In this document: positions 2-4,906 of the stretch, in pieces
How the letters are laid out: each line of letters begins with the position of its first letter
Position numbering within the stretch: the first letter of the stretch is position 1
Virus record (IMG/VR): IMGVR_UViG_3300024270_000052
Source: a virus
Lineage: Duplodnaviria > Heunggongvirae > Uroviricota > Caudoviricetes
Reading direction: 5' to 3' (one strand)
Length of the DNA stretch: 16,670 nucleotides
The notes under the pieces: generated by a model
Database searches by the model: none
What the model saw: the letters and a program-made list of their open reading frames with translations, nothing else
What the model was told of the DNA's origin: nothing
Program-made: the position numbers and the translations under genes

Positions 2-352
2 GTATTAACTACTTTTTTTGTAAAATGGGTTAATTCCAAAAGCGCAGAAATCTCAAATAAAATTGATGATGAAACATTAAATAAATATTTAAATATGCTT
101 ACTGAAACAATTAATACTTGCGTTTTAGCAACCAATTAGACATATGTTGAAAGTTTAAAACAACAAGGAAAGTTTGATGCGGAAGCGCAGAAAGAAGCAT
201 TTAATTTAACTTGTTCAGCAGTAATGGATATTTTAAGTGAGGACGCAAAAGAATATTTAACTTCTGCTATTGGAGATTTACAAATTTATATTACAAAGAA
301 AATTGAAGCTGAAGTACATACAAATAAAGTTACACCTTGTGTAAATCAATAA
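2..352 (+). CDS. 3' part of a phage protein, putative holin-like (5' end outside window); one TAG=Gln at 137-139
   Basis: Frame 2 reads VLTTFFVKWVNSK...CVLATN(TAG)TYVESLKQQGKFDAEAQKEAF...VNQ-TAA(350-352), open apart from one TAG. From recall, it resembles phage proteins with a TNQTYV.SLK.QGKF motif often labelled holin; the function is uncertain. Confidence 0.6.
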
Positions 353-409: not shown

Positions 410-1114
410 TTAAATTCTATTATAAGTAAGCCAACGTTCACGAATTAAATCATGAGATTTTTTGGGAAAATATAATACTTCATCATTTTCAAAAGTTAAA
501 TGGTCAGTATCAATAATCTTAATTTCACTTAAATTAATCAATAAACTTGGTGCTAAAAATAAAAATTGCGGATGTTGGTTCAATGGAGTTATTGCTTTTT
601 CAAAAGATGAGCGCAATGACTAACCATCAAACATTGTTCCATTTTTTAAATGATAACATAAACAACGTTTTACAATGTTAATATAATTAACTTGACTTGA
701 GCGTATTCTTCTTTCACCTTCCGCAGTTTTAATTACCAAACTATCTTCTCTTATCTCTTTTTTAATTATATTAAATAATTCAAACAATTCTTCTTTTTCT
801 ATTGGTTTTAAAAAATAATGATCTGCATGCACTTTATAAGCAGGATAAGCGAGAGAAGGATCTTCTCCAATAAAAATAAAATAACTATTTGGGTCTATTT
901 TATCCATGCGATGACTTAACTCATATAGATTTTCTGATGAATCAGTGTCCATAATATAAACATCAAAACTTGCAGGAACAACAAGTAAATCTTCTGATTT
1001 ATCAAAAATTGATACTTTTGCCACAGACTTAGATTCTATTAAATATTCTTGAATCATCTCACGCAATTCATTTAAATATGTTTTGTTGTCATCATAAATA
1101 GCAATAGAGAGCAT
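410..1114 (-). CDS. LytTR-family response regulator (receiver + LytTR domain), 234 aa; TAG=Gln at 620-622
   Basis: Track ORFs 620-1114 and 410-616 are in one frame, separated only by a TAG: ...KNGTMFDG-Q-SLRSSFEKAI... The receiver has IAIYDD, YIMD and YFLKP; the C-terminal half has a LytTR-like layout. SD AAAGGAGG upstream; ends in TAA. Confidence 0.85.
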
Positions 1115-1178: not shown

Positions 1179-1426
1179 ATTTTTTTGTGTAAAAAGTGTA
1201 AAAAATTTTAATTTTTGAGTATTTGATTTTTAAATTTACTTTTTGACATTCGGATTTTAAAAATAAAATTGTAATTTTGAAAAATTGAATAAAAATTGTA
1301 AGGATGAAAAATCAGACAAAAAATGTGTGAGTGTTTCTTGTTTAAAAATCTGAAACAATTTTTATATAGTAATGGAAGGGTAAGAGAAAAATAAAAAAAA
1401 TGAATAAATACCTTGGAGGTGAATAT

Positions 1427-1903
1427 ATGAATTATCAATATAATCAGTAGCAGGTGAGTCCACCGCAGAATTAGACGACTCAGCAGTATTCTTACCAACG
1501 ACAAGTTCCTTATACTTCTGGAACTTGGAATGCGAGAGTCAGACCGGTTTCTTCAATTGAAGAAGTAAGAGCATCTTCAATTGATTTTGATGGCTCAATT
1601 TTTTATTTCCCAGATGTTGCTAATAAAAAAATCTATACTAAATTTATTAATTTAGATGGCTCTGTGGCAATTAATGTATATGAGTTAAAAGAAATGCCAA
1701 CAGGTTAGGCAGCAGATTCATCTTACATTACAAGAGAAGAATTTGAAAACGTAATTATGTAGTTAAAAATGATGTATAATAATTCTTCTGCGCCTTCTAC
1801 TCCAATAGAAGAATAGCAATAGGTATAGTAGTAGATGAATAGTAATTAGTTTGCGGCACCACCCGCACAATAGCAACATAATGTTTCGCCATTACAATTT
1901 TAA
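1427..1903 (+). CDS. Cassette gene 1: Gln/Asn/Pro-rich termini with a central globular region, 158 aa; 11 TAG=Gln codons (absent from the ORF track)
   Basis: SD GGAGGTGA 1415-1422, ATG 1427, TAA 1901-1903. Reads MNYQYNQQQVSPPQNQ...RVRPVSSIEEVRASSIDFDGSIFYFPDVANKKIYTKFINLDGS...YITREEF...EEQQQVQQQM. TAGs at 1448, 1472, 1706, 1760, 1814, 1820, 1826, 1829, 1832, 1847 and 1871, mostly within Gln runs alongside CAA/CAG. Confidence 0.85.
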
Positions 1904-1916
1904 GGAGGTATGAAGA

Positions 1917-2162
1917 ATGGCACAAGTTGATCCGAGACAATTAATAGCTATGATTAGAAATGGTCAAAATCCTCAACAACTTATGTTAAGTGTTTTAGAG
2001 ACGATGCAAGATACTCCTTTTGGAGCCAATTTATTGAATCTCGCTCGCAATGGTTAGACTGCGGAGATTGAAAAAATTGCTCGGAATATCACATCTCAAA
2101 GAGGTATGGATTATGATAAAGAGTTTAATGCCTTTAAACAATAGTTTTTTGGCTTTAAATAA
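1917..2162 (+). CDS. Cassette gene 2: small helical hypothetical protein, 81 aa; TAG=Gln at 2055 and 2142
   Basis: SD AAGGAGG 1902-1908, ATG 1917, TAA 2160-2162. Reads MAQVDPRQLIAMIRNGQNPQQLML...NGQTAEIEKIARNITSQRGMDYDKEFNAFKQQFFGFK. Confidence 0.85.
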
Positions 2163-2199
2163 ATAAAATATTTTTTTTAATTAAAGGAGGGTTTCTTTT

Positions 2200-2994
2200 A
2201 TGTTTAATTCTAATGGTTACAGTTTGGCAGATATCGTTGCCGCAACAGGTGGCGGTAGAGAGAATTGCGGCGGCTTCGGCGGCTGGGGCGGAGATGGATG
2301 GTGGATTATCCTCTTATTCTTGCTCTGGGGTAACAACGGCTGGGGCGGCAATCAAGGTGGACGTGGAACAGTTCGTGAAGAAATTGCTTATGGTTTTGAT
2401 ATGAACGGTTTAGAAAATAGCGTCCGTGGTGTTCAGCAAGGTATTTGTGATGGTTTCTATGCCATGAATACTGGTATGTTAAATGGATTTAGTAACATTC
2501 AAAATACTCTATGTCAAGGTTTCTCTGGTATCAATCAAGGTACAGCTCAGTAGACATTTGATTTATCTACTCAGTTACATGGTATGGCAGCTGATAATGC
2601 GGCTTGTTGCTGCGAAACTCAGCGCGCTATTGAAAGAGGATTTGCTGAAACCAACTATAACATGGCAACTCAAGCTTGCGATACTCGTAGAGCAATTGCT
2701 GATAGCACTCGTGATATTATTGACAGTAATAACGCAGGTGTTCGTTCTATTTTAGATTTCTTAACTCAGGATAAGATTGCTACTCTTACCGCAGAAAATC
2801 AGAGTCTAAAATTCGCAGCTTCTCAGGCAGCTCAGAACGCTTTCATTGCAGCTAATCAGGAAGCTCAAACCGCAGAACTTATTCGCAGACTTGATACCCC
2901 ATGTCCTATTCCCGCTTATGTAGTTCCTAATCCTAATTGTTGCTATCCATCTTATGGATATGGGTATGGCAACACTGGATGCTGCGGTGGTTAA
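2200..2994 (+). CDS. Cassette gene 3: Gly-rich/hydrophobic N-terminus, helical core, Cys/Tyr/Gly-rich C-terminus, 264 aa; TAG=Gln at 2551-2553
   Basis: Track ORFs 2200-2553 and 2584-2994 share a frame and join as GTAQ-Q-TFDLSTQLHGMAADNAACCCETQRAI. SD AAAGGAGG upstream; ends in TAA. Confidence 0.85.
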
Positions 2995-3019
2995 TTAACA
3001 AAGGAGGTAAAAAATCTGT

Positions 3020-3439
3020 ATGGAAATTATTGCTAATGCTTTATAGACAGTTCCAGCAAATCAGACTGTTTATTTCACAGATACCGCCGTATGCGGTGGC
3101 CCATCTATGACTCATAGAGCTGGTAGTGGTTTAATTACTCTTAGAGGAATTACTAATCAATGTAGAGCAAGATTCCGCATCACTTTTGGAGCAAATATTG
3201 CTGTTCCAACAGGAGAAACAGTTGGACCAATTTCATTGGCTATTGCGATAGAGGGTGAACCTCTTCAAGCTACTACAATGATTGAAACACCAGCGGCTGT
3301 TGAAGAGTTCTCAAATGTTTCAAGAACTACCTTTATTGATGTTCCTCGTGGATGTTGTGTAAGTGTAAGTGTAAGAAATGTAAGTGATATTCCAGTAAAT
3401 GTACAAAACGCAAACTTAATTGTTGAACGTGTTGCTTAA
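3020..3439 (+). CDS. Cassette gene 4: predicted all-beta protein (possibly BclA-CTD/C1q-like jelly roll), 139 aa; TAG=Gln at 3044-3046
   Basis: SD AAGGAGG at 3001, ATG 3020, in frame with track ORF 3107-3439: MEIIANAL-Q-TVPANQTVYFTDTAVCGG... Alternating hydrophobic beta-strand pattern; the fold assignment is an inference. Confidence 0.8.
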
Positions 3440-3457
3440 TGAAAGGAGGTCTTATAA

Positions 3458-4105
3458 ATGGAGAAAAGATTAGAACATATGAAAGAATCTTTAATGGCTT
3501 GCGTTGAAAGTCAATTAACTCATTTAGATACAGTTGATACTAAAGAATTAGGTGAAGCCATTGATATGATTAAAGACCTTGAAGAAGCAATCTATTATTG
3601 TACTATTACAAAAGCAATGAAGGAACAGGATAAAGGAGAAAAAGAATCTCATAAATATTATCCAGTAATGTATAATAGAGATATGGATAGAGATATGGGA
3701 AAAATGTATTATGAAAACCCAAATTATATGGGTGGTAATGATACAAAACGTCAATATTCATCTGGAAATGGAGGAGGCAACTCCTCCTCCATGAGTAATT
3801 CTTCTGGAAGCGGAGGAGGTAATTCATCCTCTGGAAATACTGGTTCAAAACAATATAGTGAAACAGAATATAATTTAATGCGCGACCAGCGTGAAGGACG
3901 TAGTCCTCAGTCGCGCCGCATGTATATGGAATCAAAAGAAATGCATTCAGATAAAGCAACTCAAATGCGTGAATTAGAAACTTATATGCAAGAGTTAACT
4001 CAAGATGTAGTTGAAATGGTTGAAGGTGCAACTGTTGAAGAAAAGCAGTATTTAAGTAAACGAGTAGCAGCTCTTGCAAACAAATTGGCTCAATTAAATG
4101 ATTAA
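3458..4105 (+). CDS. Cassette gene 5: helical N- and C-terminal regions with a Gly/Ser/Asn low-complexity linker, 215 aa; no TAG
   Basis: Track ORF with SD AAAGGAGG. Linker SSGNGGGNSSSMSNSSGSGGGNSSSGNTGS. Stop TAA 4103-4105 overlaps the next gene. Confidence 0.85.
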   Translation: MEKRLEHMKESLMACVESQLTHLDTVDTKELGEAIDMIKDLEEAIYYCTITKAMKEQDKGEKESHKYYPVMYNRDMDRDMGKMYYENPNYMGGNDTKRQYSSGNGGGNSSSMSNSSGSGGGNSSSGNTGSKQYSETEYNLMRDQREGRSPQSRRMYMESKEMHSDKATQMRELETYMQELTQDVVEMVEGATVEEKQYLSKRVAALANKLAQLND

Positions 4106-4442
4106 CATTAATGGTGAACAATGGAGAGTGTTTTTAACCTCTCCATTTCACCCTGCTTTAAAACGCAGTGATGGTGCTTATACTCTAGGATGCTGTGATG
4201 ATGTAACAAAAACAATTTATATAAGTAATGATGTAAGTGATAAATATTTAAAAAAAGTTTTATGCCACGAACTCACTCACGCCGCAATGTTTAGCTACAA
4301 CGTAGATTTGACTTATGAGCAAGAGGAAGTTCTCGCTGATATTATAGCAACATATGGATAGGAAATTATTCATATGGCAAATCTTCTCTTTAAGAGGTTA
4401 AAAGATGAAAGAGAAGAAGAAAGAAAAAATGGGAGTATCTAA
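4098..4442 (+). CDS. Cassette gene 6: small HEXXH zinc metallopeptidase-like protein (ImmA/IrrE-like), 114 aa; TAG=Gln at 4359-4361
   Basis: Motif VLCHELTHAAMF followed by EEVLAD. After the TAG the frame continues YG-Q-EIIHMANLLFKRLKDE... to TAA 4440-4442 inside the terminator hairpin. Start overlaps the end of gene 5. Confidence 0.75.
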
Positions 4443-4465
4443 TAATTTAGATACTCCCATTTTTT
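4424..4465. terminator. Bidirectional intrinsic terminator
   Basis: AAAAAATGGGAGTATCTAA (4424-4442), loop TAAT, TTAGATACTCCCATTTTTT (4447-4465), between convergent stops at 4442 (+) and 4469 (-). Confidence 0.9.
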
Positions 4466-4468
4466 TTG

Positions 4469-4906
4469 TTATATATTACAATCTCGTACTTCTAACTTCA
4501 TCGCACTTTCATAATAATTTTTAGCTTGACCATTGCCGCCCAAAGAAGTATATAATTTATAAAATTCAGTTAATTGGTCATACTAGTCGGGAGTCATAAA
4601 TCCTTGTCTAATAAATCCTTTGCATAATTGAACTAAACGGAAACGATAAGAAGAAATAATTAAATTCATGTGATTCTTTTCTACTTGACCCACATTATAG
4701 ATATAAGACCTTAATTCTTCAAGCTCCTATTGAATTGGTTCAATTTTACTGTCAATTGTTTCATTCAATTTGTCAGTCTCTTGGTCTGCTAAAAGCTTTT
4801 TATAATTTTTCATTTGACTATGCATATATTTACAAAAAGCTAAAGCACCAGCAGAAATTAAACCAAAAATAATTTCAATGAAATGTTCAGTTAAAAAAGC
4901 TAACAT
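4469..4906 (-). CDS. Phage membrane-anchored protein with an LGGNG motif (possibly holin-like/lysis-associated), 145 aa; TAG=Gln at 4727-4729 and 4583-4585 (absent from the ORF track)
   Basis: SD AAAGGGG, ATG 4906, TAA 4469-4471. Reads MLAFLTEHFIEIIFGLISAGALAFCKY (TM-like)...IEPIQ-Q-ELEEL...GFMTPD-Q-YDQLTEFYKLYTSLGGNGQAKNYY. The holin role is tentative. Confidence 0.7.

Follow-up and report, generated by a model that had tools for sequence, protein, structure and literature searches.

The question raised by the locus described here is what six adjoining genes of a Caudoviricetes virus build together. The DNA analyzed, called the window throughout, is a stretch of 16,670 nucleotides from the IMG/VR virus record IMGVR_UViG_3300024270_000052. 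The genes occupy positions 1427 to 4442, corresponding to 103075-106117 in the 126-kb virus record, where they form the terminal part of a long plus-strand late block. A preliminary description, made from the letters alone, had seen in them an uncharacterized cassette that may build a Cys-rich structure. The cassette proved to be a real operon, and none of its genes belongs to a family that is named or of known function. It is a self-contained, mobile, separately regulated late accessory operon of gut Bacillota phages. The product of its third gene, g3, was predicted to be a rod and appears nearly always to work with one of two exchangeable small beta proteins.

When TAG was read as Gln, positions 1427-4442 resolved into six co-oriented plus-strand genes; under the standard code only short open reading frames (ORFs) were seen. 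The genes and the terminator that closes them are as follows.

1427-1903, plus strand: g1, 158 aa, ORF with TAG read as Gln
1917-2162, plus strand: g2, 81 aa, ORF with TAG read as Gln
2200-2994, plus strand: g3, 264 aa, ORF with TAG read as Gln
3020-3439, plus strand: g4, 139 aa, ORF with TAG read as Gln
3458-4105, plus strand: g5, 215 aa, ORF without TAG
4098-4442, plus strand: g6, 114 aa, ORF with TAG read as Gln
4422-4467, both strands: bidirectional intrinsic terminator, hairpin stem of 19-20 bp, T-runs on both strands

A GGAGG-type Shine-Dalgarno sequence was found 6 to 10 nt 5' of each of g1 to g5, and g6, which overlaps g5 by 8 nt, is translationally coupled to it. The terminator ends both the six-gene operon and a convergent minus-strand gene. 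The tight packing of six plus-strand genes, the Shine-Dalgarno sequences or overlap, and the bidirectional terminator named in the preliminary description were all confirmed, as was the presence of TAG in five of the six genes (11, 2, 1, 1, 0, and 1 in-frame codons in g1 to g6, respectively). The features it had quoted were likewise present: the Q/N-rich character of g1, the WWIILLFLLWG segment, CCC, and CC...CCGG tail of g3, the GCC pair of g4, the Gly/Ser linker of g5, and HELTH in g6.

Codon 9 of g4 (TAG) corresponds to Gln in 13 of 14 standard-code homologues, and codon 112 of g1 (TAG) to Gln in 6 of 9. Where the alignment is informative, in-frame TAG stands at the Gln positions of homologues, and read-through restores the ORFs, in agreement with genetic code 15; the predicted fold of the read-through g4, with a predicted local distance difference test (pLDDT) score of 95, was consistent with this code. 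TAG accounts for 11 of the 23 Gln codons of g1, which is unusually TAG-dense in this copy, and CAG is used more in the cassette genes than in the neighboring genes. The rise in GC content over the cassette lies mostly at codon positions 1 and 2, reflecting the Gly and Ala content, and GC at third positions (GC3) was 0.16 to 0.30 against a genome median of 0.19.

Related loci were collected with hidden Markov models of the six genes. In approximately 170 loci from gut phages and Bacillota prophages, the order g1-g2-g3-g4-g5-g6 was never permuted, so that the reading of the genes as one cassette stood. The full set was found at approximately 45 IMG/VR loci and in 14 of 80 species-level bacterial genomes, the others holding colinear subsets; g1 and g3 were nearly universal among the cassette loci. 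The recurrence of all six genes in the same order at many loci is far more than chance would give. Many of the full copies, however, represent one syntenic phage lineage, whose members share one holin on the upstream side and, on the downstream side, the same PHROG 4105 protein, RuvC, and dUTPase, and their agreement is therefore partly due to descent. Relatives of g3 numbered at least 8000 clusters (90% identity) among 5.8 billion clusters, all unnamed and none with a Pfam domain, and more than 576 IMG/VR stretches encode g3. The occurrence of similar gene runs as hypotheticals in gut Clostridia phages, offered from recall in the preliminary description, was verified by these homologue and synteny searches.

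The surroundings of the cassette were found to vary. It occurred in contigs of 27 to 400 kb, after a holin (window type), after an endolysin and a PHROG 4105 protein (L057), after the major capsid protein, adaptor, and XhlA genes (L026), after a minor head protein (L047 type and Dulem virus 35), after holin and lysin (bajarodcaudo virus 5 and Butyrivibrio virus Ceridwen), and, in a group of 58-kb phages, approximately 7 kb past the tail genes. Differing contexts between lineages, together with regulation of its own, mark the cassette as a mobile unit tied to no single virion type. Within the two genes that lie 5' of the cassette, scored in 75 distinct loci, the commonest annotated family was the holin PHROG 13712 (16/75); several endolysin/amidase families, the minor head protein, tail proteins, recombinases, and XhlA were also among the common ones.

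Host assignments came mostly from bins of metagenome-assembled genomes (MAGs). Among isolates, Enterocloster hominis and Anaerotruncus colihominis DSM 17241 were found to carry the cassette in prophages. Both g3 and a g4 of 49% identity are encoded by Ceridwen, a lytic phage that was obtained on B. fibrisolvens DSM 3071 (PMC7372960). A clear member of PHROG 16490, the family of g3, was detected in the Bacteroides phage C3_41T2LP (host Bacteroides uniformis; E 1e-46), where its prior annotation was "outer capsid protein/viral fiber." Two genes 3' of it lies a 177-aa protein (L087:6022-6552) whose C-terminal part matches PHROG 473, "virion structural protein" (E 1.4e-8), and a PolyVal-type metallopeptidase gene follows a few genes further, a layout that echoes the cassette in a Gram-negative host.

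The g3 protein is a member of PHROG 16490 (E 7e-57, full-length profile match), and it gave no Pfam, NCBIfam, PADLOC, or PDB-sequence match as a single sequence or as a profile; a query of the ESM Atlas with a g3 homologue returned only viral hypothetical clusters. From the N to the C terminus it consists of a conserved N-terminal peptide, a Gly/Trp-rich segment, a Gly-rich linker, a heptad helix, and a Pro/Cys/Tyr/Gly-rich tail. Two places were conserved toward the N terminus of the alignment, the peptide MFN..GYSL.DIAA.TG and the Gly/Trp-rich segment with a hydrophobic core of 10 to 13 residues, which in this copy is WWIILLFLLW at residues 34-43. The flank on the N-terminal side of the core is acidic family-wide (mean net charge, -1.5), which would favor an N-out, C-in topology if g3 spans a membrane. 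A heptad pattern of hydrophobic and small residues extends over approximately 61-232, some 170 residues, through a repeat-like region whose length varies by repeat-like indels. The alignment further contains the conserved block TRDIID...ILDFLTQDKIATL.AENQ.LKFAASQ, followed by the tail CP.PAYVVPNPNCCY...GCGC, in which the Pro-rich motif P.P.PAYVVPNP is also conserved. The CCC at 136-138 is invariant, as is the terminal Cys, and the protein has 12 Cys in total.

AlphaFold2 placed helices in g3 at 34-42, 71-107, and 111-232, with pLDDT values of 70 to 90 in the C-terminal half of the rod and with the Gly-rich linkers disordered. In the model, g3 forms a long rod of alpha helix that follows the heptad pattern, preceded by a hydrophobic anchor at the N terminus and ending in a tail rich in Cys and Pro. 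Other identities were considered and rejected. The likeness of the N terminus to the small sporulation membrane proteins of the YjcZ family was compositional, with no NCBIfam or Pfam match at E values up to 1, and a double-glycine leader, as in bacteriocins, was discounted because the GG is not conserved among homologues. Long relatives that might represent fusions to tail, tape-measure, or adhesin domains were few. In the best case, at L240:8001-10097, a tail protein of 871 aa contributes its first 516 residues, which are joined to the C-terminal half of g3; in 79 relatives (for example, L171:8001-10616) the 871-aa tail gene is intact and the cassette lies approximately 7 kb downstream. The join at L240 is a deletion variant or an assembly artifact and no natural fusion.

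The g4 protein belongs to PHROG 20016 (E 4e-58, full-length profile match). No Pfam family was found for it at E values up to 1, and a phmmer search against PDB sequences gave nothing relevant. AlphaFold2 predicted a stand-alone C1q/TNF-like jelly-roll over residues 1-139, with the pLDDT of 95 and a predicted template modeling score (pTM) of 0.87. The top matches to this model from Foldseek and VIA were the C-terminal domains (CTDs) of F-BclA and BclA and BxpB/ExsF, followed by C1q/TNF domains. The best in Foldseek was the F-BclA CTD (9h38; E 7e-7, TM 0.77), then the BclA CTD (1wck), ExsFA (7r1m), and BxpB (8d02). These spore-surface folds led the remaining C1q/TNF superfamily by only 1 to 3 Z units, at 11 to 17% identity, and the tips of phage fibers (cyanophage A-1(L), A4, and phi812) were also among the fold matches. 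In BFVD, many phage orphans share the fold, some labeled "BclA protein." The BclA/BxpB-type beta domain suggested in the preliminary description therefore holds for the predicted fold, which is closest to these proteins, but not for sequence membership. A search for longer or fused forms of g4 found one 288-aa singleton only.

The gene following g3 was compared across the 160 loci with enough DNA downstream of it. Directly 3' of g3 lay g4 in 109 and an alternative Cys-rich beta protein in 45, so that one or the other followed g3 in 154/160 loci; neither was present in 6. The alternative partner is approximately 130 to 145 aa long, Cys-rich, and of beta type, with a start of the form MAC..(N)..C..C and invariant Cys at 3, 7, 10, 42, and 112, and it had no Pfam, PHROG, or PDB match. 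Examples that stand directly after g3 in place of g4 are as follows.

L026:6872-7303: alternative partner
L041:6697-7095: alternative partner
L054:6619-7017: alternative partner
L068:6851-7246: alternative partner
L079:6829-7212: alternative partner

Mapped onto the g3 tree, the type of partner required at least 19 switches, compared with approximately 35 for shuffled labels. Since g3 is almost always followed by one of these two proteins, it probably works with either of them as exchangeable partners. Conservation was 60 to 72% for g4 and 45 to 67% for g3.

The remaining proteins gave fewer leads. As single sequences or as profiles, g1, g2, and g5 matched nothing in Pfam, PHROG, NCBIfam, PADLOC, or the PDB. 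In g1, an N-terminal region rich in Gln, Asn, Tyr, and Pro precedes a conserved domain of approximately 80 residues (36-118), a Gln-rich tail, and, at the C terminus, a conserved aromatic residue; searching with a profile of this domain retrieved 1990 representative clusters (50% identity), each single-domain and of 83 to 200 aa. The 81-aa g2 is a helical orphan with the conserved motifs GQNPQQL and DFDKEF, placed between g1 and g3 in most loci. In g5, two conserved helical end domains surround one low-complexity linker, which is rich in Tyr, Met, and Asp and in Gly, Ser, and Asn. The low-complexity tracts of both g1 and g5 are poorly conserved in sequence and length. For g5, the ESM Atlas returned only viral hypothetical clusters and suggested DUF7841 at 0.83. 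In divergent cassettes, the g5 slot holds proteins with a C-terminal DUF7841 (PF25223), at L055:6855-7799, L057:5080-5910, and L069:4222-4917. Homology of g5 to DUF7841 found no support, as hhalign of the g5 alignment against these slot proteins gave a probability below 1%.

The last protein, g6, is a member of PHROG 1233 (E 8e-18, full-length profile match). H57, E58, and H61 of its HExxH motif were invariant or nearly so in 34 homologues, in agreement with the HEXXH peptidase named in the preliminary description, and a downstream EQEE is conserved. Pfam matches fell below threshold (DUF6782, 24.0 against 27; Peptidase_M78, 21.7 against 22; SprT-like, 20.3 against 25.6; E 3e-5 to 5e-4). The protein is classed as a minimal HExxH zincin. 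No signal peptide was read in any of the six sequences, and PADLOC returned 0 families for all six.

Regulation of the operon appeared to be its own. The intergenic region 1115-1426 contains conserved, repeated TTGTGA-like elements, TGTGAGT, and a TATAGT -10 without a -35, and a consensus scan for promoters placed TTTAAA-18-TATAGT at 1341-1370. The blocks of the promoter region are kept in the equivalent intergenic regions of L013, L020, and L037, where coding identity is only 50 to 58%; these loci also have a gene of equal size and orientation at the position that the minus-strand gene upstream occupies here. In the AT-rich genome, a search for recurrent promoter k-mers was uninformative. Two features were assigned.

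1318-1372, plus strand: candidate activator-dependent promoter, conserved TGTGAGT block approximately 33 nt 5' of a conserved TATAGT-type -10, without a good -35
410-1114, minus strand: orphan LytTR-type response regulator, divergent from the operon (NCBIfam LytR, E 1e-5, below cut-off)

This arrangement suggests that transcription of the operon is activator-dependent, with the LytTR protein as the candidate regulator. In two unrelated contexts of other lineages, a small sigma-region-4-like helix-turn-helix (HTH) gene was found directly 5' of g1.

Taken by kind, the cassette may provisionally be classed as encoding a fiber with a C1q-like knob, and the present copy is an ordinary member of a very common family. 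As to function, a rod that is made late, assembles in the cytoplasm, is anchored in the membrane, carries an exchangeable knob, and acts at the cell envelope around lysis is proposed tentatively, as a reading that falls somewhat short of an even chance. The operon would be switched on late from its own activator-dependent promoter, translation being possible only when TAG is read as Gln; lateness is suggested by this dependence and by the position and orientation shared with the late block. Lacking signal peptides, the products would assemble in the cytoplasm. There, g3 would oligomerize to a coiled-coil rod that its short hydrophobic segment, flanked by Trp, anchors to the inner face of the membrane, in the N-out, C-in topology favored by the acidic flank. 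The beta knob, g4 or the alternative, would join the rod, possibly in the manner in which ExsF trimers clamp the Pro-rich leader peptides of BclA and F-Anchor (bioRxiv 10.1101/2025.02.11.637640). The low-complexity-rich set of g1, g2, and g5 may serve as assembly helpers or scaffold, and g6 may trim one component. The finished structure would act on the host envelope at or around lysis and not as part of any particular virion. The main argument for the envelope over the virion is that the same module occurs in phages of 27 to 400 kb at varied positions, which points to a target common to all; lysis genes as the commonest annotated upstream neighbors were also counted in its favor.

Several observations weigh against this proposal. 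Adjacency to lysis genes is expected for any insertion that ends a Gram-positive late operon, and in two lineages the cassette lies within the head module. The hydrophobic core of g3, at 10 to 13 residues, is short for a membrane span, and its single-chain model was of low confidence overall (pLDDT 60, pTM 0.24). Contact between rod and knob gained no support from covariation, as no g3 column tracks the type of partner, and Rosetta-stone searches found no g3-g4 fusion. Disulfide-linked, Cys-rich structures make little sense in the cytoplasm of a strict anaerobe, and for none of the six proteins was a named homologue found that would point to a function.

The main rival to an envelope role is decoration of the virion, which is possible, if on the unlikely side: trimers of g3 would form head or collar fibers capped by the g4 knob, with g1, g2, and g5 as chaperones and g6 as a maturation protease, giving a BclA-like "nap" with affinity for mucus or for glycans on cell surfaces. 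Phage fibers and spikes often bear C1q/TNF-like knobs, as the matches to A-1(L), A4, and phi812 illustrate, and the stalk varies in length by repeat-like indels, as fibers do. In Dulem virus 35 and the L047 type the cassette stands between the minor head protein and capsid genes; the Bacteroides phage homologue carries its fiber annotation and has the neighbor that weakly matches a virion structural PHROG; and exchange of the distal partner resembles the swapping of receptor-binding modules. Yet a common docking site is hard to see on phages of very different size and architecture that carry the cassette at varying positions, and the greater conservation of g4 than of g3 is the opposite of what a host-range determinant would give. 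A hydrophobic, Gly/Trp-rich N terminus would also be unusual as a capsid-binding base, and an operon with its own promoter, regulator, and terminator does not favor this role. A further idea, that the phage makes a virion-independent, exosporium-like "nap" or tether of coiled-coil rods with exchangeable knobs, assembled in the cytoplasm and active or cross-linked at lysis, which shapes the release, retention, or protection of progeny in the gut, is considered improbable.

Two weaker readings were also weighed. That g1, g3, and g5 form a condensate in the cytoplasm, oxidized at lysis to a cross-linked matrix or shell in which progeny or debris are embedded or protected, takes up the shell or condensate of the preliminary description without its link to spores and is quite unlikely; three of the six proteins have long low-complexity tracts rich in aromatic residues, Gly, Gln, and Ser, g3 has the invariant CCC and terminal Cys among its 12 Cys, and products without signal peptides would meet an oxidizing milieu only at lysis, but the basis is purely compositional, the tracts are poorly conserved, and searches of Pfam, PHROG, and PDB sequences found no homology to any matrix-forming protein. 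A host-directed moron, effecting superinfection exclusion, defense, or lysogenic conversion through a membrane-displayed or anchored structure, would explain the position typical of Gram-positive morons (3' of lysis genes, with own promoter and terminator and slightly different codon use), the optional presence among related phages, and the prophages of A. colihominis DSM 17241 and E. hominis. It is nonetheless very unlikely, given that PADLOC found no match, that large, apparently virulent phages carry the cassette as well, and that the first gene of the recoded phages, with up to 11 in-frame TAG codons, cannot be translated while the host code applies, as it does in a lysogen and at the start of infection; the strong conservation and structural-type composition are also unlike the fast turnover of defense genes.

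The preliminary description had likened the proteins to spore coat or exosporium components and proposed a check for correlation with spore-forming hosts. SpoIVA was above cut-off in 36 of 40 cassette-bearing genomes, compared with 305 of the 399 genomes in a sample spanning their class; in the class-wide sample, g3 was present in 8 genomes, all SpoIVA-positive. One-sided Fisher tests gave p 0.03 (36/40) and 0.11 (8/8), uncorrected for phylogeny and with many of the genomes being MAGs. The excess is marginal and phylogeny confounds it; relatives in Butyrivibrio and Bacteroides phages spoke against a link to spores. Butyrivibrio fibrisolvens, the host of the lytic phage that encodes g3 and g4, is a non-spore-former, a PHROG 16490 member is present in the Bacteroides uniformis phage, and neither g3 nor g4 was found in any Bacillus or Clostridium phage of a 50,697-record phage collection, in which such phages are many. 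The distribution looks like "gut Bacillota and some neighbors," not "spore formers." The claimed kinship itself was not borne out, as only the g4 fold, nearest to Bacillus exosporium and ENA proteins, points that way. At E values up to 1, none of the six proteins matched coat or exosporium families in Pfam or NCBIfam or the exosporium leader TIGR03720 in NCBIfam, and the g4 polypeptide, with its jelly-roll over 1-139, lacks a collagen-like GXY stalk. Late lytic expression would, moreover, destroy the would-be mother cell. A module with which the phage adds to or modifies the coat or exosporium, using BclA/BxpB-like and Cys-rich proteins, is hence highly improbable.

The genes that flank the cassette in the window bear on its position. 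The copy described here is bordered by a holin and the divergent LytTR regulator, the latter a single minus-strand gene that separates the cassette from the holin and the late block upstream. The preliminary description had placed the cassette against otherwise minus-strand flanks, which is correct for the LytTR gene but not for the holin, nor for the plus-strand late block that the cassette ends. The two flanking features not listed above are as follows.

2-352, plus strand, extending 5' beyond the window: holin gene (PHROG 13712, E 1.5e-30), one TAG
4469-4906, minus strand: 145-aa protein with an N-terminal hydrophobic helix (PHROG 4105 / 4257, function not assigned), convergent on the cassette terminator

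In L057, a PHROG 4105 member adjoins the endolysin just 5' of the cassette, and this protein may be linked to lysis. No endolysin of the Amidase_2, Amidase_3, or GH25 families was detected in the 126-kb record (71% complete). Two further observations concern the wider genome. At G000:C1 ~97194-101612 (L090:11195-15610), right before the holin, the late block ends in a set of enzymes unusual for that place: two radical-SAM-like genes and one for an aldo-keto reductase to which a 4Fe-4S dicluster domain is fused. At G000:C1 ~25000-42500, a cluster of short genes has a GC3 of 0.46 to 0.63 against the genome median of 0.19 and looks like a compositionally foreign island.

Given how common the operon is in phages of the human and animal gut, that its regulation is its own, and that purifying conservation is strong, it must confer a real advantage. 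Neither the g3 family nor the g1 domain, with its approximately 2000 clusters, has a name, a Pfam family, or a paper; no paper was found on the PHROGs of g3, g4, and g6, and literature searches on DUF7841 and on BclA in connection with phage gave nothing relevant. Solving the function of the cassette would annotate thousands of dark-matter genes and could bring to light a new step in the way phages are released, adhere, or persist in the gut, and the link of g4 to the BclA/ExsF fold bears on the origin of the C1q-like proteins of Bacillota spore surfaces. The question can be tested in culturable systems, namely Ceridwen, C3_41T2LP, and the A. colihominis DSM 17241 prophage.

Among known systems, g3, g4, and g6 are already known as PHROGs 16490, 20016, and 1233, none with an assigned function. 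The closest comparison for g6 is with the ImmA/IrrE (Peptidase_M78), SprT-like, and DUF6782 zincins, with which it shares HExxH, a downstream acidic cluster, and a preceding beta-strand motif; it differs in that all its matches lie below the gathering cut-offs and that, at 114 aa, it has no ImmR-type HTH repressor as a partner gene. The i-spanins (Rz-type) of phages that infect Gram-negative bacteria resemble g3 in the predicted N-terminal membrane anchor, the coiled coil with Cys, and the location near lysis genes. They differ in that the cassette hosts are mostly Gram-positive, that g3 is much longer and without sequence similarity to them, and that its partner is a jelly-roll protein; no small lipobox-bearing gene of o-spanin type was found in the cassette, whose hosts are Bacillota.

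The phi29 head fiber gp8.5 and T4 fibritin are trimeric coiled-coil phage fibers with a distal globular part. The likeness lies in g3 as a dispensable rod with a heptad pattern, close to them in size and variable in length, and in its pairing with a small beta protein of globular form. There is no match to them in sequence or fold, and g3 differs in its Gly/Trp-rich hydrophobic N terminus and Cys/Pro tail, in having its knob encoded by a separate gene, and in being accompanied by four further genes with their own regulation and no fixed place in a morphogenesis module. The C1q/TNF-like jelly-roll of g4 is shared with the BclA/F-BclA CTD and BxpB (ExsFA/ExsF) of the Bacillus cereus-group exosporium and F-ENA (1wck, 9h38, 8d02, 7r1m, and 9h3d). 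Compared with BclA, g4 shows 16 to 17% identity in structural alignment, no Pfam BclA_C match, no collagen stalk, and no leader. Compared with BxpB/ExsF, it is likewise a stand-alone C1q/TNF-like protein of comparable length (139 aa, beside about 150-170 aa), at 11% identity and with no detectable sequence homology. What sets the cassette apart from both is that it is phage-encoded, including in phages of non-sporulating hosts, and that its candidate stalk, an alpha-helical coiled coil, is a polypeptide of its own.

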